From Escherichia phage ph0021, in sequence record OP557970.1: a stretch of 64,000 nt of DNA; one strand, given 5' to 3'. This document shows, piece after piece, positions 32,037-45,389 of the stretch; position 1 is the first letter of the stretch, and each line of letters opens with the position of its first letter. Both the position numbers and the translations under genes were made by a program. A model generated the notes under the pieces. It was not told where the DNA came from, did no database searches, and saw only the letters and a program-made list of their open reading frames with translations.

Positions 32037-32044
32037 TATAAATA
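32037..32044 (+). promoter_or_regulatory. late promoter TATAAATA for gene 34
   Basis: Exact TATAAATA 35 nt upstream of the gene 34 ATG. Confidence 0.7.
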
Positions 32045-32078: not shown

Positions 32079-35000
32079 ATGGCCGAGATTAAAAGAAAGT
32101 TCAGAGCAGAAGATGGTCTGGACGCAGGTGGCGATAAAATAATCAACGTAGCTTTAGCTGATCGTACCGTAGGAACTGACGGTGTTAACGTTGATTACTT
32201 AATTCAAGAAAACACAGTTCAGCAATATGATCCAACTCGTGGATATTTAAAAGATTTTGTAATCATTTATAATAATCGTTTTTGGGCAGCAACGGATAAT
32301 ATTCCAAAACCTGCTGGAAATTTTAATAGAATTCGTTGGAAAGCATTACGTACTGATGCTGTATATACAACTGTATCATCTGGACCATATCAATTAAAAT
32401 CCGGAGAAGCAATTTCAGTAGATACATCAGTTGGCAATGACATTGAGTTTACTTTACCACCTTCTCCACTTGATGGAGAAACCGTAATAATTCAAGATAT
32501 CGGTGGAAAACCTGGCATAAATCAGGTTAAAATAAATTCTTCAAATCAGAGTATTGTCAATTTTAGAGGTGAACAGGTACGTTCAGTTCTAATGACTCAT
32601 CCAAAGTCACAGATGATATTCATTTTTAATAATCGTTTGTGGCAAATGTATGTTGCTGATTATAGCAGAGAAGCTGCGATTGTTACTCCATCGACTGCAT
32701 ATCAAGCACAATCTAATGATTTTATCGTGCGTAGATTTACTTCCGCTGCGCCGATTAATGTTAAGCTTCCAAGATTTGCTAATCATGGCGATATTATTAA
32801 TTTCGTTGATTTAGATAAATTAAATCCACTTTATCATACAATTGTCACGACATATGATGAAACAACTTCAGTACAAGAAGTTGGAACTCATTCTATTGAA
32901 GGCCGTGCATCGATTGACGGTTTCTTGATGTTTGATGATAATGAAAAATTATGGAGATTGTTTGACGGGGATAGTAAAGCACGTTTACGCATTATAACAA
33001 CTAATTCTAATATTCGTCCAAATGAAGAAGTTATGGTATTTGGTGCGAATAACGGAACAGCCCAAACAATTGAACTTCAGCTTCCAACCGATATTTCCAT
33101 TGGTGATACTGTTAAAATTTCCATGAATTACATGAGAAAAGGACAAACAGTTAAAATCAAAGCTGCCGGTGAAGATAAAATTGCTTCTTCAGTTCAATTA
33201 CTGCAATTCCCAAAACGCTCAGAATATCCGCCTGAAGCTGAATGGGTGACTGTTCAAGAATTAGTTTTTAACGGTGAAACTAATTATGTTCCGGTTTTAC
33301 AACTTGCTTATATAGAAGATTCTGACGGAAAATACTGGGTTGTACAGCAAAACGTTCCAACAGTTGAAAGAGTCGATTCTTTAAATAATTCTACTAGAGC
33401 AAGATTAGGCGTAATAGCTTTAGCTACACAAGCTCAAGCAAATGCTGATTTAGAAAATTCTCCACAAAAAGAATTAGCAATTACACCAGAAACATTAGCT
33501 AACCGTACTGCTACAGAAACTCGCAGAGGTATTGCAAGAATAGCAACTACTGCTCAAGTAAATCAGAACACCACATTCTCTTTTGCAGATGACCTTATCA
33601 TCACTCCTAAAAAGCTGAATGAAAGAACTGCTACAGAAACTCGTAGAGGTGTCGCTGAAATTGCTACGCAGCAGGAAACTAATACAGGTACTGATGATAC
33701 TACAATCATCACTCCTAAAAAGCTTCAAGCTCGCCAAGGTTCTGAGTCATTATCTGGTATTGTAACCTTTGTATCTACGGCAGGTGCTACTCCAGCTTCT
33801 AGTCGTGAATTAAATGGTACAAATGTTTATAATAAAAACACTAATAACTTAGTTGTTTCACCTAAAGCCTTGGATCAGTATAAAGCTACTCCAACACAGC
33901 AAGGTGCAGTAATTTTAGCAGTTGAAAGTGAAGTAATTGCTGGACAAAGTCAGGAAGGATGGGCAAATGCTGTTGTAACGCCAGAAACGTTACATAAAAA
34001 GACATCAACTGATGGAAGAATTGGTTTAATTGAAATTGCTACGCAAAGTGAAGTTAATACAGGAACTGATTATACTCGTGCAGTCACTCCTAAAACTTTA
34101 AATGACCGTAGAGCAACTGAAAGTTTAAGTGGTATAGCTGAAATTGCTACACAAGTTGAATTCGACGCAGGCGTCGACGATACTCGTATCTCTACACCAT
34201 TAAAAATTAAAACTAGATTTAATAGTACTGATCGTACTTCTGTTGTTGCTCTATCTGGATTAGTTGAATCAGGAACTCTCTGGGACCATTATACCCTTAA
34301 TATTCTTGAAGCAAATGAGACACAGCGTGGCACACTTCGTGTGGCTACACAGGTTGAAGCTGCTGCAGGAACATTGGATAATGTTCTAATAACTCCTAAA
34401 AAGCTTTTAGGTACTAAATCTACTGAAGCGCAGGAAGGCGTTATTAAAGTTGCAACTCGGTCTGAAACTGTAGCTGGAACGTCAGCAAATACTGCTGTAT
34501 CTCCAAAAAATTTAAAATGGATTGTGCAGAGTGAACCTACTTGGGCAGCGACTACTGCGATAAGAGGTTTTGTTAAAACTTCGTCTGGTTCAATTACATT
34601 CGTTGGTAATGATACAGCTGGTTCAACACAGCCATTAGAATCATATGAGAAAAATGGTTATGCAGTATCACCATATGAATTAAATCGCGTATTAGCAAAT
34701 TATTTGCCGTTAAAAGCAAAAGCCGTAGATAGTAATTTACTGGATGGTCTAGATTCGCTCCAGTTCATTCGTAGGGACATTGCACAAACAGTTAATGGTT
34801 CACTAACCTTAACACAACAAACGAATCTGAGTGCCCCTCTTGTATCATCTAGTACTGCTACGTTCGGTGGATCAGTTTCAGCAAATAGTACACTAACTAT
34901 TTCTAATACTGGAACAGCAACTCGTCTGATTTTTGAGAAAGGACCTCAAACTGGAACAAACCCGGCTCAAACGATGACAGTCAGAGTGTGGGGAAATCAA

Positions 35001-35948
35001 TTTAGTGGGGAATCAGACACAACACGTTCTACCGTATTTGAAGTTAGTGATGAAACGTCTAGTCATTTTTATTCTCAGCGCAATAAAGCTGGAAATATAA
35101 CATTTAATATCAACGGTACAGTAACACCGATAAATGTTAATGCTTCAGGAACATTGAATGCAAATGGTGTAGCAACATTTGGTAATTCAGTCACTGCAAC
35201 TGGTGAAATTATTTCTCGAAGCGCAAATGCTTTCCGTGCTATTAACGGAAATTATGGTTTCATTGTTCGCAATGATGGGTCAGTAACGAATTTTATGCTT
35301 ACTGCATCGGGTGATCAGACTGGTGGATTTAATGGATTACGTCCTTTAGCTATTAATAATGCATCTGGTCAAGTAACGATTGGTGAAAGCTTAATCATTT
35401 CCAAAGGTGCTACTATAAGTTCAGGTGGTTTAACTGTTAACTCGAGAATTCGTTCTCAGGGTACTAAAACCTCTGATTTATATACCCGTGCGCCAACATC
35501 TGATACAGTAGGATTCTGGTCAATCGATATTAATGATTCAGCCACTTATAACCAGTTTCCGGGTTATTTTAAAATGGTTGAAAAAACTAATGAAGTTACT
35601 GGACTTCCATACTTAGAACGTGGTGAAGAAGTTAAATCTCCTGGTACATTGACTCAGTTTGGTAACACACTTGATTCACTTTACCAAGATTGGATTACTT
35701 ATCCAACGACTCCAGAAGCACGTACCACTCGCTGGACACGTACATGGCAGAAAACCAAAAACTCTTGGTCAAGTTTTGTTCAGGTATTTGACGGAGGTAA
35801 CCCTCCTCAACCTTCAGATATAGGAGCGATCCCATCTGATAACGGAATAATAGGTAATCTTACTATTCGCGATTTCTTGCGAATTGGTAATGTTCGCATT
35901 ATTCCTGACCCAGTGAATAAAACTGTTAAATTTGAGTGGATTGAATAA
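32079..35948 (+). CDS. 34: gp34 long tail fibre proximal subunit
   Basis: 1289 aa (T4 gp34 length); repetitive beta-rich fibre sequence. Confidence 0.95.
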   Translation: MAEIKRKFRAEDGLDAGGDKIINVALADRTVGTDGVNVDYLIQENTVQQYDPTRGYLKDFVIIYNNRFWAATDNIPKPAGNFNRIRWKALRTDAVYTTVSSGPYQLKSGEAISVDTSVGNDIEFTLPPSPLDGETVIIQDIGGKPGINQVKINSSNQSIVNFRGEQVRSVLMTHPKSQMIFIFNNRLWQMYVADYSREAAIVTPSTAYQAQSNDFIVRRFTSAAPINVKLPRFANHGDIINFVDLDKLNPLYHTIVTTYDETTSVQEVGTHSIEGRASIDGFLMFDDNEKLWRLFDGDSKARLRIITTNSNIRPNEEVMVFGANNGTAQTIELQLPTDISIGDTVKISMNYMRKGQTVKIKAAGEDKIASSVQLLQFPKRSEYPPEAEWVTVQELVFNGETNYVPVLQLAYIEDSDGKYWVVQQNVPTVERVDSLNNSTRARLGVIALATQAQANADLENSPQKELAITPETLANRTATETRRGIARIATTAQVNQNTTFSFADDLIITPKKLNERTATETRRGVAEIATQQETNTGTDDTTIITPKKLQARQGSESLSGIVTFVSTAGATPASSRELNGTNVYNKNTNNLVVSPKALDQYKATPTQQGAVILAVESEVIAGQSQEGWANAVVTPETLHKKTSTDGRIGLIEIATQSEVNTGTDYTRAVTPKTLNDRRATESLSGIAEIATQVEFDAGVDDTRISTPLKIKTRFNSTDRTSVVALSGLVESGTLWDHYTLNILEANETQRGTLRVATQVEAAAGTLDNVLITPKKLLGTKSTEAQEGVIKVATRSETVAGTSANTAVSPKNLKWIVQSEPTWAATTAIRGFVKTSSGSITFVGNDTAGSTQPLESYEKNGYAVSPYELNRVLANYLPLKAKAVDSNLLDGLDSLQFIRRDIAQTVNGSLTLTQQTNLSAPLVSSSTATFGGSVSANSTLTISNTGTATRLIFEKGPQTGTNPAQTMTVRVWGNQFSGESDTTRSTVFEVSDETSSHFYSQRNKAGNITFNINGTVTPINVNASGTLNANGVATFGNSVTATGEIISRSANAFRAINGNYGFIVRNDGSVTNFMLTASGDQTGGFNGLRPLAINNASGQVTIGESLIISKGATISSGGLTVNSRIRSQGTKTSDLYTRAPTSDTVGFWSIDINDSATYNQFPGYFKMVEKTNEVTGLPYLERGEEVKSPGTLTQFGNTLDSLYQDWITYPTTPEARTTRWTRTWQKTKNSWSSFVQVFDGGNPPQPSDIGAIPSDNGIIGNLTIRDFLRIGNVRIIPDPVNKTVKFEWIE

Positions 35949-35956
35949 GAGGTATT

Positions 35957-37072
35957 ATGGAAAAATTTATGGCAGAGTTTGGACAAGGATACGTCCAAAC
36001 GCCATTTTTATCGGAAAGTAATTCAGTAAGATATAAAATAAGTATAGCGGGTTCTTGCCCGCTTTCTACAGCAGGACCATATGTTAAATTTCAGGATAAT
36101 CCTGTCGGAAATCAAACATTTAGCGCAGGTCTTCATTTAAGAGTTTTTGACCCTTCAACAGGAGCATTAGTTGATAGTAAGTCATATGCTTTTTCTACTT
36201 CAAACAATACAACATCTGCCGCTTTTGTTAGTTTCATGAATTCTTTGTCAAACAATAGACTTGTTGCTATATTAACTAGCGGAAAGGTTAATTTTCCTCC
36301 TGAAGTGGTATCTTGGTTAAGGGGAGCAGGAACTTCAGTTTTTCCATCAGATTCAGTATTGTCAAGATTTGACGTATCATATGCTGCTTTTTATACTTCT
36401 TCTAAAAGAGCTATTGCATTAGAGCATGTTAAACTAAGTAATAGAAAAAGCACAGATGATTATCAAACTATTTTAGATGTTGTATTTGATAGTTTAGAAG
36501 ACGTCGGAGCTACGGGATTTCCTAAAAGAACATATGAAAGTGTCGAGCAATTTATGTCAGCGGTTGGTGGAACTAATAATGAAATTGCGCGTTTGCCAAC
36601 TTCATCCGCGATAAGTAAATTATCTGATTATAATTTAATTCCTGGTGATGTTCTTTATCTTAAAGCACAGTTATATGCTGATGCTGATTTACTCGATCTT
36701 GGAACTACAAACATATCCATTCGTTTTTATGATGCATCAAATGGATATATTTCCTCTACCCAAGCTGAGTTTACTGGGCAAGCTGGGTCTTGGGAATTAA
36801 AGGAAGATTATGTAGTTGTTCCTGAAAATGCAGTCGGATTTACTATATATGCGCAGAGAACTGCTCAAGCTGGTCAAGGCGGAATGAGGAATTTAAGCTT
36901 TTCTGAAGTATCAAGAAATGGCGGCATTTCAAAACCTGCCGAATTTGGCGTCAACGGTATTCGCGTTAATTATGTCTGTGAATCGGCTTCACCTCCAGAT
37001 ATAATGGTACTTCCTACACAAGCCTCTTCTAAAACTGGCAAAGTGTTTGGGCAAGAATTTAGAGAAGTTTAA
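35957..37072 (+). CDS. 35: gp35 long tail fibre hinge
   Basis: 371 aa; position after gene 34. Confidence 0.85.
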   Translation: MEKFMAEFGQGYVQTPFLSESNSVRYKISIAGSCPLSTAGPYVKFQDNPVGNQTFSAGLHLRVFDPSTGALVDSKSYAFSTSNNTTSAAFVSFMNSLSNNRLVAILTSGKVNFPPEVVSWLRGAGTSVFPSDSVLSRFDVSYAAFYTSSKRAIALEHVKLSNRKSTDDYQTILDVVFDSLEDVGATGFPKRTYESVEQFMSAVGGTNNEIARLPTSSAISKLSDYNLIPGDVLYLKAQLYADADLLDLGTTNISIRFYDASNGYISSTQAEFTGQAGSWELKEDYVVVPENAVGFTIYAQRTAQAGQGGMRNLSFSEVSRNGGISKPAEFGVNGIRVNYVCESASPPDIMVLPTQASSKTGKVFGQEFREV

Positions 37073-37103: not shown

Positions 37104-37111
37104 TATAAATA
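37104..37111 (+). promoter_or_regulatory. late promoter TATAAATA for gene 36
   Basis: Exact TATAAATA 24 nt upstream of the gene 36 ATG. Confidence 0.7.
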
Positions 37112-37134: not shown

Positions 37135-37785
37135 ATGGCTGATTTAAAAGTAGGTTCAACTGTAGGTGGATCTGTCATTTGGCATCAAGGAAATTTTCCA
37201 TTGAATTCAGCCGGTGACGATGTACTCTACAAATCATTTAAAATATATTCAGAATATAATAAACCACAGGCAGCTGATAACGATTTCGTTTCTAAAGCTA
37301 ATGGTGGTACTTACACCGGTCCAATTACTATTAATTACGGGGTAAATAGTTATCTTCAATTAAGTAATAATGAAACCCCCATTCGAATTCGTTCTGGTGG
37401 CGGTACCGGTAATACTCTTGTAGTTGGCGGCTCTTCCGGTGGTATTAGTTTTAGACCTGCAGGTAGTGAAATCACTACTGGACAAATTACCATTACGCCA
37501 GAAGGTTTGACAACATTTACCAGGGCTGTAACGGCTCCATCGGTAACTGTTACATCTACTCCTTCCGCAGCATCTGATGTTACTCGTAAAGATTATGTTG
37601 ATGGAGCAATAAATACTGTTACAGCAAATGCAAACTCTAGGGTATTACGCTCTGGAGACACTATGACAGGAAATTTAACTGCGCCAAACCTTTTTTCACA
37701 GAATCCTGCATCTCAACCTTCACACGTTCCACGATTTGACCAAATCGTAATGAAGGATTCTGTTCAAGATTTCGGCTATTATTAA
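37135..37785 (+). CDS. 36: gp36 long tail fibre distal connector
   Basis: 216 aa; position and Gly/Thr-rich fibre composition. Confidence 0.85.
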
Positions 37786-37793
37786 GAGGACTT

Positions 37794-40760
37794 ATGGCTA
37801 CTTTAAAACAAATACAATTTAAAAGAAGCAAAACTGCAGGTCAACGTCCTGCTGCTTCAGTATTAGCCGAAGGTGAATTGGCTATAAACTTAAAAGATAA
37901 AACAATTTTCACAAAAGATGACTCAGGTAGTGTTATAGAATTAGGTTTAAAATATGGAGGAACAATTGATGGTTCTTTAACTGTTAATGGAAACATAATT
38001 GGAAATTTAACAGGTAACGCTGCAACTGCAACGAAATTAAAAACAGCACGAAAAATTAATGGTATATCCTTTGATGGGTCAAAAGATATCACGCTAACTC
38101 CATCTGACATAAATGTCAATAGCACAACGTTTATAAAAAATAACGGCGAATTACCTGTTGATGCTAATTTAGATGAGTATGGGCCTGTTGAAGAATATCT
38201 TGGAGTTTGGTCGAAAGCAACTTCAACCAACGCTCAACCAGCAAATAAATTTCCAGAAGAAAATGCTGTAGGTGTTCTAGAAGTATTTGTGGCCGGTCAA
38301 TTTGCTGGTACTCAGAGATATACAACTAGATACGGAAATGTTTATATTCGTTCCTTGACTGCTACATGGAACGGAGTAAATGGTCCGTGGAGTGTGTGGC
38401 GAAATATTCAATCCGGTACTCGTCCACTGTCAACAACAATTGATCTTAATGATCTAGGAGGCGCTGAACACCTTGGTTTGTGGCGAAATAGTTCAAATTC
38501 CATTGCTACCTTTGACAGAAATTTCCCAGAAGAGGGGTCGTCAGCTCAAGGTCTTTTGGAAGTATCTGAAGGTGGAAACTATTCTCGTACACAAAGATAT
38601 ACAACCAGATTTGGAGTTGTTTATACTCGCTGTCTTACTGCTGCATGGGATGCATCTGCGCCTAAATGGGGACCGTGGCAACAAGTCGGTAATGTCACAC
38701 CGGCGACTTTCTATGATGGAGATCTGAATGATTTTAAAACTCCTGGGTTATATAATATTTTAGGCACTGATGCCGTTATTAACTGTCCTACAGGTGAAGG
38801 TTTGCCGACTGTTATTGTTGGTTTGCTGGAAGTTAAACAGCGTGCTTCTGGCGGTGCTATTTTCCAAAAATTTACTACTGCCGGAACAGGTGCAACTACT
38901 CGCGATCGTATTTTTGAGCGTGCATATACTGGTGGTGCGTGGGGTGCATGGAACGAAGTATATACATCTTATTCTCTGCCAATTACTTTGGGTATGGGTG
39001 GTATTAAAGCTCAATTAGCGGAGTTAGATTGGCAAACCTTTGATTTTGTCCCTGGTAGTATGTTTAGTGTTCCTTTGAACAAAATAAAGAATATGCCCGC
39101 AAATATGGATTGGGGCACGATTGATGGAAACCTGGTTATGTTTTCCGTTGGTCCTAGCGAACACACTAGCACAGGACGTACTGTTCAGATTTGGCGTGGT
39201 ACTGTATCCCAGACAAACTACCGTTATTTTGTCGTTCGTGTATTCGGTAATTCAGGAAATAGAACTTGCACAGTTCGTCGTGTTGTTCTTGAAGACGGAT
39301 CACATACTTGGACTGCTAAACAAGATTTTAATGGCGCAGTTAACTTTAACTCTACTGTTAACCTTAATAACACTACCACATTTAAAACAGAAGTTAAATT
39401 TCGCTCATTGAATGCATTCCGTATGTATGGCGGAAAATTTGGTACATTTTTACGTAATGATGGAGAGAGTCTTTATATTCTTTCCACCGACGAAGATGAT
39501 CAAGATGGAAACTTTAATACAAATAGACCTTTCCGTTATGAATTAAGAACTGGTGATGTTACTTTAGGTGGTATTAGTGGTGCTAACGTTTTAAAATTAA
39601 AACGTGATTCTCTCACCGCATTTTTTGGTGGTGATATTAACATGAAAGGCTTGATGACTTTTGACGCCGGACGTTTAGGATCACGAGATTATTTTAAATT
39701 TAACCATTGGGGTGATAGTAATAATGCGCGTGATAACATTATTCAGTTAGAAGACAGCAAAGGCGCTCATTTTTCCACTGAACGTACTTTAGCGACTGGT
39801 GCAATTAAGACTAAATTTTTTGGTGAAATTGAATCCGATGGTAAATTGGTTATTAAACGTCCGGGTGATTCTATTGTATTATCAGCACCTGCTAATAATT
39901 CTTTGCATATTCGCGGTGATATAGACGGGACTGGTAACTGGTATATTGGTAAAGGTGGTACTGATAATGGATTAGCGTTCTATAGTTATGCTACTAATGC
40001 TGGTGTATACATTACAAACGCAGGAGATATCTCGCTAAGTCCAAAGGGTGCCGAAATGGCTCAGGTCAATAACGTTCGATTATATGTTCATGGTGAACGT
40101 TGGACCGCTAGTCAACCAGGTGATTGGGGCAGTCAGTGGCAAGTGGAAGCGCCAATATTCGTCGATCATGGTTATGTTGGATCAGATAGCTATTATCCAA
40201 TTATTAAAGGAAGAAGTGTAGTCACCAATCAAGGGTTTGTAACTGCCGTCGATCTTGGTATTCGTCGTGTCAATAACAATTGGGGACAAGCAATTATTCG
40301 TGTTGGATCTGCGGAGGCATCGCCAGCGGCTGGACACCCTAACGCGGTATTTGAATTTCATTACGACGGTACTTTCTATTCTCCTGGTAATGGTAACTTT
40401 AACGATGTGTATATTCGTTCCGATGGTCGTCTTAAGATTAATAAAAAAGAGCTAGAAAACGGAGCACTTGAAAAAGTATGCCGACTGAAAGTTTATATTT
40501 ACGATAAGGTTAAGTCTATTAAAGACCGTAGTGTTATTAAACGCGAAGTTGGTATTATTGCTCAGGATCTTGAAAAAGAATTACCGGAAGCTGTGTCTAA
40601 AGTTGAAGTTGATGGATCTGATGTTCTGACAATTTCTAACTCCGCTGTGAATGCTCTTTTAATTAAGGCTATCCAAGAAATGAGCGAAGAAATTAAAGAA
40701 TTAAAAACGCCTTTCTTCACTAAAATTGCTCGCAAAATTAGTAAATATTTTAAATTCTAA
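37794..40760 (+). CDS. 37: gp37 long tail fibre distal subunit with C-terminal chaperone-like tail
   Basis: 988 aa fibre protein; last ~110 aa switch to a charged helical segment ([12 protein letters not shown] ... EEIKELK). Confidence 0.9.
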
Positions 40761-40763
40761 CAA

Positions 40764-40790
40764 CAAGGGGCAACGCCCCCTTTGGAGATA
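40764..40790 (+). terminator. hairpin between genes 37 and 38 (attenuator-like)
   Basis: aaggggcaacgccccctt hairpin immediately before the gene 38 RBS. Confidence 0.4.
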
Positions 40791-40794
40791 AATT

Positions 40795-41595
40795 ATGGCA
40801 GTAGTTGGTGTTCCTGGTTGGATTGGTAGTTCATCCGTAAATGAAACAGGACAACGATGGATGAGTCAAGCGGCTGGTCAATTAAGATTGGGTGTTCCTT
40901 GCTGGATGAGTCAATTTGCAGGTCGCTCACGAGAAATTATTCATACACTTGGAGCAGACCATAACTTCAATGGTCAATGGTTCCGAGATAGATGTTTTGA
41001 GGCCGGTAGTGCACCTATAGTGTTTAATATTACAGGTGATTTAGTATCATATTCTAAAGATGTTCCTTTATTCTTCATGTACGGGGATACGCCTAATGAA
41101 TATGTTGTTCTTAATATTCATGGTGGTGTTCATATGTGGGGTCGTGGTGGTAATGGTGGATACACTCACTCAGGAGGCGACGGTAACGGTACACAAGGCG
41201 GTCATGTTATTCAAAATGATATCGGCGGACGGCTTCGTATTTGGAACTACGGTGTTATAGCTGCTGGCGGTGGCGGTGGCGGTGGTATTGCATATCGTCC
41301 ACACTCAGGGGCAAACTGGCAAGATATCGGTGGCGGTGGTGGTCGACCTTTCGGTGGCGCTGGCGGTGGCGGTTATTCCGGTGGTGCTGCTTCGTATGAA
41401 GGTCCGGGTGGTGGTTATGACTATGGTAACGCACACTCCGGCGCTGGTGGTAATGCTGGTGCTGCTGGTCAGAATGCATGGTCTGACGGCGGTAAAGTTC
41501 TTAAAGTTGGTGTTGGTGGTGCGTCTGGTCATGCAGTGTTTGGATCTTCTCCAACTTGGGGTGTTGTTGGAACAATTTACGGACCAAGAGTATAA
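40795..41595 (+). CDS. 38: gp38 receptor-binding adhesin, T2-type with glycine-rich motifs
   Basis: 266 aa; N-terminus [13 protein letters not shown] and multiple poly-Gly blocks (GRGGNGG, GGGGGGG, GGAGGGG) separated by variable segments. Confidence 0.9.
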
Positions 41596-41625: not shown

Positions 41626-42282
41626 ATGGCAGCACCTAGAATATCATTTTCGCCCTCTGATATTCTATTTGGTGTTCTAGATCGCTTGTTCAAAGATAAT
41701 GCTACCGGGAAAGTTCTTGCTTCCCGGGTAGCTGTCGTAATTCTTTTGTTTATAATGGCGATTGTATGGTATAGGGGAGATAGTTTCTTTGAGTACTATA
41801 AGCAATCAAAGTATGAAACATACAGTGAAATTATTGAAAAGGAAAGAAATGCACGCTTTGAATCTGTCGCCCTGGAACAACTCCAGATAGTTCATATATC
41901 ATCTGAGGCAGACTTTAGTGCGGTGTATTCTTTCCGCCCTAAAAACTTAAACTATTTTGTTGATATTATAGCATATGAAGGAAGATTACCTTCAACAATA
42001 ACTGAAAAATCACTTGGAGGATATCCTGTTGATAAAACTATGGATGAATATACAGTTCATTTAAATGGACGTCATTATTATTCCAACTCAAAATTTGCTT
42101 TTTTACCAACTAAAAAGCCTACTCCCGAAATAAACTACATGTACAGTTGTCCATATTTTAATTTGGATAATATCTATGCTGGAACGATAACCATGTACTG
42201 GTATAGAAATGATCATATAAGTAATGACCGCCTTGAATCAATATGTGCTCAGGCGGCCAGAATATTAGGAAGGGCTAAATAA
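41626..42282 (+). CDS. t: holin T
   Basis: 218 aa; MAAPRISFSPSDILFGVLDRLFKDN and single TM helix as in T4 holin. Confidence 0.95.
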   Translation: MAAPRISFSPSDILFGVLDRLFKDNATGKVLASRVAVVILLFIMAIVWYRGDSFFEYYKQSKYETYSEIIEKERNARFESVALEQLQIVHISSEADFSAVYSFRPKNLNYFVDIIAYEGRLPSTITEKSLGGYPVDKTMDEYTVHLNGRHYYSNSKFAFLPTKKPTPEINYMYSCPYFNLDNIYAGTITMYWYRNDHISNDRLESICAQAARILGRAK

Positions 42283-43297: not shown

Positions 43298-43577
43298 ATT
43301 GAATCACCTTCAGTTGACGTTTTAATTCTTTTATCATCTCTTCGTTCATCGCAATATAAAGATCGCGTAAAGCAGGTTTTAACATTCCATTTACTGGAGA
43401 ACTAAATGGACATACATAATCTTTTCCTACGAGCTTTTTGGTGAATTCCATATCACAGAACTGAAATGCCGGTTCATTGGCATAAATTCCCCAATTAGTT
43501 GACATCATTTTATTGGCATATTCCAACGCCTGGATTTGATTCTTAATTCCATCAATTTGAAACTTTTTAATATTCAT
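43281..43577 (-). CDS. hypothetical protein
   Basis: 98 aa ORF. Confidence 0.35.
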   Translation of the reverse strand: MNIKKFQIDGIKNQIQALEYANKMMSTNWGIYANEPAFQFCDMEFTKKLVGKDYVCPFSSPVNGMLKPALRDLYIAMNEEMIKELKRQLKVIQFGQGN

Positions 43578-44038
43578 TAGTAAAGGTCCTCAGAGTAAAG
43601 TTCTTTTTCACTACCACCGTGTTCAATACGTACTTGTCCGGCGTAAGTTGCAATAATCATTGCTTCTTCACGTGTCCAGTAATTGCTATACTGATCAATA
43701 AACCCTTGGTCATCATCACAAACTTGCTGAGTAACTAATTGGGGTTTAACTACATCTAAAACTTCTGCCATATCTTTAGAATAATGACGAGCACCTGGAA
43801 TAACAAGAGTTCGTCCATCTTTTAATTTAAAACGGTTGGCGGCACAAACAATTCGTCGTTGATACTTTTGGTTTTCATCCCAGTATGCGGTCTGCCAACA
43901 GATTTCAGGAACTTCTTTCAGAATATCTTCTTCTGTGCATTTATAACCATGTGCTTTAAATTTTTCAACAAGACTTTCTGGAGTTTCACGAGATAAAGGA
44001 ACATTCAGCATTTTTAAACGATTAATAAATGGGTTCAT
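43577..44038 (-). CDS. hypothetical protein
   Basis: 153 aa ORF; no motif recognised. Confidence 0.4.
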
Positions 44039-44364
44039 TTAAACCATCCTTTAATACGCTGCCACAGAGTTTTCTGTTGAGCTTTGTTAACACCAATTGA
44101 GCGAATAACTGGTTGAGATTCCTGGAATTCTTTATAATCAGCAAGGTAAATTTCGTAAGCCGATTGAACAAAGGTACTAATCGCTGCCATGAAGTTCTTG
44201 CGAATTCCCATAGAGGCTTCAGAACCACCACGGATGATTAAATATTTACCAGTCTTAATCTTTACGATAGTTCCAAGATAAGCTCCATGGTACCAGATGT
44301 CCCACCCCTCTTGAGTGGGTTCTGCACAACGACGAAGTTCATTAACAATTTCTAACTTGTTCAT
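44035..44364 (-). CDS. hypothetical protein (motA.1 position)
   Basis: 109 aa ORF. Confidence 0.4.
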
Positions 44365-44374
44365 TATTTATTCC

Positions 44375-45010
44375 TCACAGTTCAGATGCTACGGTGATTA
44401 CCGCTTCAATGTTTTCTGCCGAGCGTTTAATGTCAAGATACACATTACCGTTTTTAGCGATTTTACATGACATTCCGATATCAATAAATTTCTGAATATG
44501 ATGTTCCATCATTTTGTATCCAAAAATTCGCATATTTCCATTATTGTTAATTTCAAAATTACGAATTCCGTGAGTGCGTTTTTCTAAAATAGCGAGATAG
44601 TTACTACGATAAGTTTCAACCTTTTTAAGAACAAATCCATTTTCATCTAAAAGTTTTAGCATAAGGTCTTTATCTTCTTCCATATCGGAAGTAATCTCAC
44701 GAGCTTTACGAGTTGCTCGTTTTTTCAGTAGTTCAGGAGCATTTTCCTGTGCATATAAAGTTGCTGCATTTGAAATAATATCCTGAGCTTCTCCTGTAAT
44801 GATTAATCCATCACCAGATTTCTCTACCAGACCTTTTTTAATCAATACCCCAATATTACTATTAACTACTGCATTACCTAAATCTGGATGCACCTCACGA
44901 ACTTCTGCGGCTGTAATGAAATCTTTCTTAGCAATGGTAATTAAAATCGCAGCAGTTTTTTCATTCAGAACATCGTTAGAAGCTTTGATGATGTAAGTTA
45001 CTTTAGACAT
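44375..45010 (-). CDS. motA: MotA middle-transcription activator
   Basis: 211 aa starting MSKVTYIIKASNDVLNEKTAAILITIAKKDFITAAEV. Confidence 0.9.
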   Translation of the reverse strand: MSKVTYIIKASNDVLNEKTAAILITIAKKDFITAAEVREVHPDLGNAVVNSNIGVLIKKGLVEKSGDGLIITGEAQDIISNAATLYAQENAPELLKKRATRKAREITSDMEEDKDLMLKLLDENGFVLKKVETYRSNYLAILEKRTHGIRNFEINNNGNMRIFGYKMMEHHIQKFIDIGMSCKIAKNGNVYLDIKRSAENIEAVITVASEL

Positions 45011-45045
45011 TTTAATCTCCGTTTCAGTTCATTTATTTGATAGGT

Positions 45046-45076
45046 CTATAGTATCATGTTTAAAGCAGAAGTAAAC
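45046..45076 (-). promoter_or_regulatory. T4-type early promoter for motA
   Basis: GTTTAC (45071..45076) and GATACTATAG -10 region on minus strand. Confidence 0.55.
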
Positions 45077-45115
45077 ACTTTTTTGCACTCTTTTTCAAGA
45101 GCTCTAATAAAGTAC

Positions 45116-45343
45116 TTACTTAATGTTCAGATTACGAACTTCGATTTCGTCTTCATGGGCAAAATCAAACTGTTTGAATTCTGTGTCACCTTTAAATTTA
45201 AAAATCATTGTGAAGAAAGTCAGAACACCAGGTTTTTCTTCACGAACTCCACAGATATCATATTCAATACCATCTACAACCAGTTTGTTAGCAGTCAGAG
45301 CATTTTTAGCTTTAACGATTTCGTTTTCGATTTTAAATTTCAT
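45116..45343 (-). CDS. hypothetical protein
   Basis: 75 aa ORF with its own early promoter. Confidence 0.4.
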   Translation of the reverse strand: MKFKIENEIVKAKNALTANKLVVDGIEYDICGVREEKPGVLTFFTMIFKFKGDTEFKQFDFAHEDEIEVRNLNIK

Positions 45344-45389
45344 TTTTTGTATCTCCGGGTTGTTTGTTTCAGTTCATTTATTTGATAGT

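Follow-up and report, generated by a model that had tools for sequence, protein, structure and literature searches.

The window, a 64,000-nucleotide stretch of DNA from Escherichia phage ph0021 (OP557970.1), carries on its plus strand gene 37 (37794..40760), an open reading frame encoding the 988-aa precursor (108.2 kDa) of the long tail fibre distal subunit, and gene 38 (40795..41595), encoding an Ox2-type receptor-recognising adhesin of 266 aa (26.9 kDa). The product of gene 37 matched PHROG 1699 ('long tail fiber protein distal subunit', E 2.7e-224), and the gene was 98.1% identical at the nucleotide level to g37 of E. coli phage DalCa and 100% identical to that of OR584013. Its neighbours are g34 (1289 aa), g35, g36 and the holin gene t. 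Gene order and gene lengths around the locus agreed with the annotated T4 record, as stated in an initial annotation of this DNA. A pattern search revealed the T4-type late-promoter motif TATAAATA (37104..37111, plus strand) 5' of g36, in agreement with the T4 gene layout; a late g36-g37-g38(-t) transcript is probably driven from this motif.

Gene 38 starts 34 nt past the stop codon of gene 37, which carries a predicted cleavable chaperone domain. Between this stop codon and the Shine–Dalgarno sequence of g38 (GGAG, 40784-40787, plus strand), the sequence contains the hairpin GGGGC-AAC-GCCCC (40767..40779, plus strand). Its stem is kept in M1, T6, RB32, and T2, with differing loops and stem bases (alignment A3), and it may serve mRNA stability or translational coupling. 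The same gene order and intergenic hairpin are found in the gene 37 (3' end)/gene 38/gene t locus of Ox2 (X05675; Montag et al. 1987). An Rfam scan of the entire window gave no match, and scans for sigma-70 promoters and terminators yielded counts at or near the shuffle expectation. Antisense and out-of-frame open reading frames within gene 38 (52-114 aa) were dismissed as by-products of its GGN-rich coding strand. Loci of this kind are already known from their gene sequence (since 1987), from the cleavage of their product (since 1986), and from structures (since 2018 and 2026).

Extent of the mosaic block

The flanks of the locus are 95-100% identical to T4 and T2, whereas nucleotide similarity is wholly lost from ~37950 to ~41600. 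Because T4/T2-like flanks enclose a block without nucleotide similarity, the earlier proposal of a mosaic module holds relative to T4; its confinement to the fibre tip does not, as the module covers nearly all of gene 37 together with gene 38. The block differing from T4 extends from gp37 residue ~60 to the stop codon of gp38 and comprises ~3.6 kb. The last segment homologous to T4 and T2 is the conserved N-terminal, gp36-joining end of gp37 (37794..37991, plus strand; ~66 residues), in which residues 1-66 are 79% and 76% identical to T4 and T2, respectively.

Finer breakpoints were located in the gp37 tip and just 5' of the first gp38 glycine motif. Among Tequatrovirus genomes, vB_EcoM_DalCa is 94-100% identical at the nucleotide level over the entire fibre locus, with a single amino acid difference in gp38; VEc20 has an unrelated gp37 tip (window 39860-40560), and WL-3 has diverged in the N-terminal half of gp38 and in segments of gp37. 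As VEc20 and WL-3 differ from the window in separate segments, the module has been reassorted in pieces, and the locus represents a clean textbook case of sub-genic mosaicism in tail-fibre genes. The T2-type arrangement predominates among T4-like phages (Trojet 2011, PMC3157838), which makes T4 the atypical one.

The C-terminal domain of gp37

Residues 876-988 of gp37 constitute a C-terminal intramolecular chaperone domain (40419..40757, plus strand; 113 aa, 12.9 kDa, pI 9.3). It matched Peptidase_S74 (Pfam PF13884) with 43.1 bits (curated cut-off 22) and E 5.2e-11 over aa 876-934, spanning profile positions 1-57 of 58, and the match opens exactly at residue 876. Gly, Asn, Thr, and Ser together account for 35% of residues 1-875 and 18% of residues 876-988, with charged residues rising from 19% to 36%; 55% of the residues in the latter segment favour helix formation. 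The compositional switch in the 988-residue protein noticed in the initial annotation is thus real, with a tail of 113 residues rather than ~110; the start assigned to it at 40431 corresponds to codon 880 and lies four codons after S876 (nt 40419-40421), the predicted cleavage serine.

The domain begins with the Ser/Lys catalytic dyad motif S876-D-G-R-L-K881 (40419..40436, plus strand), and autocleavage is predicted between R875 and S876. In alignment A2, the S, D, R, and K of S-D-x-R-x-K are invariant in all six phages compared (window, Ox2, M1, T2, T6, and S16). The preceding pentapeptide DVYIR (aa 871-875; 40404..40418, plus strand) is the predicted C-terminus of mature gp37 and the predicted docking surface for gp38. 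S16 gp37 is cleaved at DLNVS/SDRRIKK, which frees its last 113 residues, and alignment to this experimentally cleaved site identified DVYIR/SDGRLKI as the cleavage context in fPS phages, in which DVYIR is the gp38 docking strand (PMC7917993). The cleavage context in the window is the exact fPS sequence. Together with the Peptidase_S74 match and the invariant motif, this identity bears out the earlier assignment of the gp37 tail to the self-cleaving intramolecular chaperone type, and release of the domain is predicted to follow trimerisation.

Comparison with other fibre proteins gave a consistent picture. The chaperone domain aligned to the intramolecular chaperone of the S16 gp37 crystal construct (6F45_A) and, in 29 tail-fibre PHROG families, matched the very C-terminal end. 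In control analyses, gp37 of T2, T6, and S16 also proved to have this domain, again with the motif at its start, but gp37 of T4 did not. The C-terminal 251 aa of Ox2 gp37, which contain the cleavage motif and the complete chaperone domain, are 96% identical to the window; nine substitutions were found in the Ox2 gp37 tip. Chaperones of the endosialidase/T5 pb1 type belong to the same Pfam family (PF13884) and share the Ser-x4-Lys dyad at the domain start, but are attached to a fibre body unrelated to gp37; they lie at the very C-terminal end of trimeric fibres (for their role, see PMC7289586). A phmmer search with the chaperone domain alone retrieved S16 gp37 and a weak tail-fibre match (8JOV) but no endosialidase or T5 pb1 chains. 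A single-sequence AlphaFold2 model of gp37 aa 840-988 was helical in the chaperone region, but its mean pLDDT of 47.6 was too poor for fold searches.

The helix-prone character of the charged C-terminal segment would also suit a structural coiled-coil or a receptor-contacting element retained in the mature fibre. We consider such retention highly improbable, since autocleavage is the defining trait of the family whose Ser/Lys dyad motif is present in full in this segment. In T2 and T6, the gp37 C-terminus is removed by proteolysis, and gp38 caps the tip (PMC3157838); removal is likewise documented in S16, and docking of gp38 needs the tip exposed by cleavage (PMC7917993).

Domain architecture of gp38

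Two Pfam families cover gp38 almost completely: Gp38_N (PF21721) matched aa 1-42 with 69 bits (E 3.2e-19), and GP38 (PF05268) matched aa 47-266 with 227 bits (E 2.5e-67) over the full profile (positions 1-218 of 218). Like the Peptidase_S74 match in gp37, both exceed the curated Pfam cut-offs, and chance is no plausible source of any of the three. The protein also matched PHROG 2056 ('tail fiber protein; host specificity') with E 1.8e-109. The N-terminal attachment domain (aa 1-42; 40795..40920, plus strand) contains W9, W22, and W37, which are invariant in alignment A1. According to work cited in PMC7917993, tryptophans of S16 gp38 act as 'prongs' that insert into the gp37 tip.

The specificity region (41140..41529, plus strand), a predicted polyglycine type II sandwich, was delimited from motif positions, invariant glycine columns, and loop mapping. 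The C-terminal 151 residues of gp38 contain 36% Gly, with glycine-rich motifs at aa 116-122, 158-164, 179-193, 203-207, 216-225, and 240-245. These include all four poly-Gly motifs quoted in the initial annotation, namely GRGGNGG (aa 116-122), GGGGGGG (158-164), GGAGGGG (187-193), and GPGGG (203-207). They frame the predicted receptor loops A-E (aa 122-130, 167-177, 189-194, 209-213, and 229-235), which were mapped by alignment to PP01 gp38 (structure 9V85), with loops defined as in PMC12892980. Across Ox2, M1, T2, and T6, the glycine columns are invariant and the segments between them variable (alignment A1), and DNA similarity to T6, M1, and T2 disappears exactly within the specificity region.

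Among solved structures, gp38 matched the receptor-binding domain of PP01 gp38 (9V85) best (E 3e-65), followed by S16 gp38 (6F45_D, E 5e-43). PP01 gp38 combines a beta-helix with a polyglycine-II sandwich bearing five receptor loops and binds OmpC of E. coli O157 (PMC12892980); its loop sequences differ from those of the window gp38. The gp37-gp38 complex of Salmonella phage S16 (PDB 6F45; Dunne et al. 2018) has the same architecture as the window, with a 113-residue Peptidase_S74 chaperone, the S-D-x-R-x-K motif, a Trp-bearing gp38 attachment domain, and glycine-rich motifs. At the sequence level, however, gp38 is 43% and the chaperone domain ~31% identical, and the similarity of the gp37 shaft and tip is confined to the last residues; the target of S16 is Salmonella OmpC (PMC12892980). 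A single-sequence AlphaFold2 model of gp38 reached a pLDDT of 32.8, too poor to test the fold.

In T4, receptor binding is a function of gp37 itself, which is devoid of a cleavable chaperone, and the 183-aa gp38 is an assembly chaperone unrelated to the window protein. That gp38 of the window acts likewise outside the virion, leaving receptor binding to gp37, is hardly credible. The gene does occupy the same position as T4 g38, and some database homologues are labelled 'distal long tail fiber assembly catalyst', but BLASTP against T4 gp38 gave E = 3.7 and hence no similarity, so this identity was refuted at the sequence level. Moreover, T4 gp38 lacks a Pfam GP38 match, and in T4 gp37 Collar and Phage_fiber domains take the place of Peptidase_S74, whereas the window gp38 matched adhesin families and solved adhesin structures. 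The earlier identification of gp38 as a T2/S16-type adhesin is therefore retained on the basis of the GP38 and Gp38_N matches, the three tryptophans, and the identities to S16 and Ox2.

Predicted receptor and host assignment

Alignment of gp38 with known adhesins, from which a receptor prediction had been anticipated, assigned it to the Ox2 type. It has the same length as Ox2 gp38 (X05675) and is identical at 264 of 266 positions (99%); identities to RB32 (89%, no gaps), M1 (77%), T6 (73%), and T2 (50%) were lower, and the variable segments of M1, T6, and T2 were unalignable with the window gp38. The adhesin being specifically of the Ox2 type, OmpA is the predicted receptor. By sequence, gp38 clusters with the adhesins of the experimentally OmpA-dependent phages Ox2 and RB32: Ox2 binds four OmpA loops and needs specific residues in these loops of E. 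coli OmpA (PMC12032242), and RB32 requires OmpA (PMC3157838). The receptor can be predicted from gp38 phylogeny (PMC12032242). VEc20 and WL-3, two phages of E. coli, have a specificity domain 100% identical to that of the window. The domain is at least 95% identical in 40 records, all from enterobacterial hosts except OR584013.

The two differences from Ox2, K174N and R193G, are located in predicted loops B and C, respectively, so that fine specificity could differ. It is conceivable, though unlikely, that N174 and G193 direct a tip of otherwise identical architecture to a receptor other than E. coli-type OmpA, with the adhesin or another virion protein recognising a surface molecule of Pseudomonas syringae or another porin or LPS of enterobacteria. 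As cited in PMC12892980, single substitutions in the variable regions of Ox2 gp38 alter receptor specificity (Drexler 1989/1991), and P. syringae pv. garcae served for isolation and propagation of the phage behind record OR584013, which is identical to the window; on E. coli ATCC 25922 this phage plated with an efficiency of only 0.11% (PMC10815195). Against a different receptor, both N174 and G193 are also present in gp38 of E. coli phage DalCa, VEc20 and WL-3, both E. coli phages, have the entire specificity domain unchanged, and coliphages match the flanking genome at 95-100% identity. Further counterevidence comes from the Ox2 requirement for E. coli OmpA loop residues and from the database records, since only one of the 437 matching records, OR584013, is labelled Pseudomonas.

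Taking these data together, we assign a probability of about 90% to the interpretation that the locus is a module for the distal tip of a T-even long tail fibre of the T2/Ox2 type that uses OmpA as receptor. It is proposed to work as follows. gp37 would be produced late, as a precursor of 988 residues, in which the Peptidase_S74 chaperone (residues 876-988) would nucleate fibre trimerisation and folding, starting at the C-terminal end. The chaperone would then cut itself off between R875 and S876 by Ser876/Lys881-catalysed autoproteolysis, exposing a flat trimeric gp37 tip that ends with DVYIR. A single copy of gp38 is predicted to dock on this tip via its N-terminal domain (W9, W22, W37), presenting at its far end five variable loops, for which the glycine-rich motifs would form a rigid polyglycine-II sandwich as support. 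Binding of these loops to the OmpA surface loops of E. coli-type hosts would represent the reversible adsorption that leads to baseplate rearrangement. For cleavage, the 3:1 gp37:gp38 stoichiometry, and the fold, this model draws on the homologues T2, S16, PP01, and Ox2, and the choice of OmpA likewise follows the homologous adhesins. No contradiction to the tip-module explanation was seen in the sequence. As the adhesin sequence gives a confident OmpA prediction, resistance routes and cocktail design become predictable for any phage with this module, which gives it limited but real practical value.

One oddity of the locus is the combination of a Pseudomonas label with an E. coli OmpA-type adhesin in GenBank OR584013, a record 100% identical to the window that names Pseudomonas coronafaciens pv. 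garcae as host. We know of no E. coli-type OmpA loops in this organism. The source publication reports productive infection of P. syringae pv. garcae by this phage, a Tequatrovirus with essentially the Ox2 adhesin; that such infection truly takes place appears very improbable. If true, either the OmpA-type gp38 would cross-recognise an unrelated Pseudomonas surface molecule, or adsorption would bypass the long tail fibre; both would amount to a cross-order host jump with the adhesin unchanged. The Pseudomonas label on a phage whose adhesin is shared with coliphages down to single residues calls for caution in its use for plant biocontrol.

Organization and mosaicism of the long-tail-fibre locus

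The window carries on its plus strand a long-tail-fibre operon of the standard T-even kind, identified by ORF calling and comprising g34 (32079-35948, 1289 aa), g35 (35957-37072, hinge protein gp35), g36 (37135-37785), g37 (37794-40760, 988 aa, distal fibre subunit precursor), g38 (40795-41595, 266 aa, Ox2-type adhesin), and the holin gene t (41626-42282). Downstream of the operon, asiA, motA, and gene 52 are encoded on the minus strand. The region assigned to a T2-type host-range module in the initial annotation (40431-41595) comprises the final 109 codons of g37 together with the entire g38. As stated there, the surroundings are T4-like: the genes agree in order and length with those annotated for T4, except for g37 (1026 aa in T4) and g38 (183 aa in T4). 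The T4-type late-promoter motif TATAAATA was found at 32037 upstream of g34 and at 37104 upstream of g36; sigma-70 promoter and terminator scans gave signals at or near background. A GGGGC-AAC-GCCCC hairpin (40767-40779) was observed in the g37-g38 gap, after the g37 stop codon and ahead of the g38 ribosome-binding site. A stem is kept at this position in Ox2, M1, DalCa, T6, RB32, and T2 despite differing loop and stem bases, which suggests a conserved RNA element, possibly for mRNA stability or translational control.

Mosaic boundaries were determined by sliding-tile BLAST. The flanks are 95-100% identical to T4 and T2, and nucleotide similarity to both disappears at ~37950 (gp37 residue ~55-66), resuming at ~41600 for T4, directly past the g38 stop codon, and at ~41560 for T2. 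As for the proteins, clear similarity to T4 is confined to gp37 residues 1-66 (79% identity); T2 shares these residues and additionally the C-terminal chaperone domain (46%). The proposed mosaic module was thus confirmed, but the unit exchanged relative to T4 is not limited to the fibre tip: it spans ~3.6 kb and covers nearly all of g37 plus g38. No break exists versus the nearest relatives, as the whole locus is 94-100% identical in DalCa without discontinuity. In VEc20, the N-terminal half of gp37 and gp38 are 97-100% identical, whereas the gp37 tip (39860-40560) is unrelated. WL-3, T6, and M1 have the chaperone domain and the N-terminal half of gp38 in common with the window; at ~41060-41120, just ahead of the first glycine motif, T6 and M1 lose all similarity, whereas WL-3 climbs from 78-85% to 94-100%. 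Modular shuffling of this kind has been described by Tetart and Trojet (PMC3157838), and the T2-type arrangement is the common one (PMC3157838). Two further mosaic patches were observed in g34 (32100-32500 and 34650-35250), with 72-80% identity or no match to T4/T2 versus 96-100% to T6 and DalCa; outside these patches, g34 is 88-100% identical to T4.

The C-terminal chaperone domain of gp37

The predicted compositional switch near the end of gp37 was evident from residue counts: Gly/Asn/Thr/Ser drop from 35% (aa 1-875) to 18% (aa 876-988), and charged residues rise from 19% to 36%, with 55% helix-favouring residues in the tail. The tail comprises 113 rather than ~110 residues and starts four codons upstream of the position initially proposed. 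Its assignment as an intramolecular chaperone was supported by a Pfam match to Peptidase_S74 ('chaperone of endosialidase', aa 876-934, E 5.2e-11, above cut-off), which begins precisely at Ser876 of the motif DVYIR-S876-D-G-R-L-K881. When gp37 C-termini from the window, Ox2, M1, T2, T6, and S16 were aligned, the S, D, R, and K residues of the motif did not vary. Peptidase_S74 is likewise C-terminal in the gp37 controls from T2, T6, and S16, whereas T4 gp37 contains Collar and Phage_fiber domains instead. The 113-residue fragment aligned to the chaperone portion of 6F45_A, a crystallised construct of S16 gp37, and to the extreme C-terminal end of 29 tail-fibre PHROG families, indicating a portable module. 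Single-sequence AlphaFold2 models of gp38 and of gp37 aa 840-988 were unusable.

S16 gp37 sheds its C-terminal 113 residues by autocleavage at DLNVS|SDRRIKK, and the aligned fPS-phage sequence, DVYIR|SDGRLKI (PMC7917993), is letter for letter the cleavage context encoded in the window. The DVYIR strand has been proposed as the gp38 docking tip (PMC7917993). For T2/T6, removal of the gp37 C-terminus and capping of the fibre by gp38 have long been established (PMC3157838, citing Drexler 1986). We infer that gp37 of this phage is also autocleaved, which would yield a mature gp37 of 95.4 kDa and a fragment of 12.9 kDa. A Gp34_trimer domain was additionally found in gp37 (aa 518-581, 39345-39536, E 2e-12). 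The domain recurs in the gp37 of T2 and T6, with a sub-threshold match in that of T4, and is thus a trimerisation module common to the proximal and distal fibre subunits.

The gp38 adhesin and its predicted receptor

Pfam analysis of gp38 gave matches to GP38 (full length, E 2.5e-67) and Gp38_N (aa 1-42, E 3.2e-19), and the protein belongs to PHROG 2056 ('tail fiber protein; host specificity'). All four glycine motifs reported initially were found (aa 116-122, 158-164, 187-193, and 203-207). Glycine makes up 36% of the C-terminal 151 residues, which accounts for a local GC peak of 53% over a background of ~35%. No variation was seen across Ox2, DalCa, M1, T2, and T6 at W9, W22, W37, or the glycine columns. 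Sequence identity was 99% to Ox2 gp38 (X05675; 264/266), 89% to RB32 (ungapped), 77% to M1, 73% to T6, 50% to T2, and 43% to the crystallised S16 adhesin. The top matches among solved structures were the PP01 gp38 RBD (9V85, E 3e-65) and S16 gp38 (6F45_D, E 5e-43), both of which combine a β-helix with a polyglycine-II sandwich from which receptor loops protrude (PMC12892980). The refuting outcome named in the initial annotation did not arise: no similarity of the window gp38 to the T4 gp38 chaperone was detected (E 3.7), and the interpretation as a T2/S16-type adhesin stands.

Ox2 binds E. coli OmpA at its four extracellular loops (PMC12032242), OmpA is likewise required by RB32, which is LPS-sensitive (PMC3157838), and gp38 phylogeny without the N-terminus is predictive of the receptor (PMC12032242). 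VEc20 and WL-3, both E. coli phages, carry a specificity domain (aa 116-266) with 100% identity to that of the window. Identity of this domain is at least 95% in 40 phage records and 80-90% in a further 93 (RB32/fFiEco06 clade); with one exception, the hosts are Escherichia, Shigella, Yersinia, and Salmonella. On these grounds, OmpA is the predicted receptor with a probability of roughly 85%. The sole differences from the 1987 Ox2 sequence, K174N (41314-41316) and R193G (41371-41373), each remove a positive charge and sit at the equivalents of the variable receptor loops B and C in the PP01 gp38 crystal structure. The two exchanges could tune specificity, but coliphage DalCa carries both N174 and G193. 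RB32 has K174/G193.

A Pseudomonas-labelled record and further observations

The published Tequatrovirus 'Pseudomonas phage PsgM02F' (OR584013; PMC10815195) is 100% identical to window positions 22000-46900; the same 25 kb are 95-97% identical in many coliphages. The module, its cleavage, the adhesin, and the structure class are already described in the literature and are not new. The OR584013 host is given as Pseudomonas coronafaciens/syringae pv. garcae, making it the only Pseudomonas-labelled record among 437 matches. PsgM02F was isolated on P. syringae pv. garcae, plated on E. coli ATCC 25922 with an efficiency of 0.11%, and was placed by its authors in a genus without any other Pseudomonas virus (PMC10815195). 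Such a host is surprising because the adhesin is identical to that of coliphages and the backbone 95-100% so. Productive infection of Pseudomonas via this adhesin appears highly improbable, and carry-over of a coliphage, or a host culture that was mixed or misidentified, would explain the label more economically. Either the assigned host is in error or the case is remarkable.

Elsewhere in the window, the Pfam profile ILEI (interleukin-like EMT inducer) gave an above-cut-off hit in gp35 (aa 58-112, E 5e-8). Across 1-64000, no Rfam match reached the gathering threshold; hence, the region where T4 has group I introns in td and nrdB appears intron-free, like the T2 annotation. A 75-aa ORF (45116-45343, minus strand) between motA and gene 52 is 100% identical at the nucleotide level in DalCa and annotated in VEc20. 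The surrounding stretch (44900-45350) has nearly no match in T4, T2, or T6, which marks the ORF as a small, indel-type accessory gene. The arn.3/arn.4 region (43500-44250) is locally variable relative to DalCa (75-89% identity) and to T4/T2/T6 (86-88%) at ~43950-44200; the ORF at 44035-44364 encodes 109 aa, compared with 68 aa for T4 arn.4.
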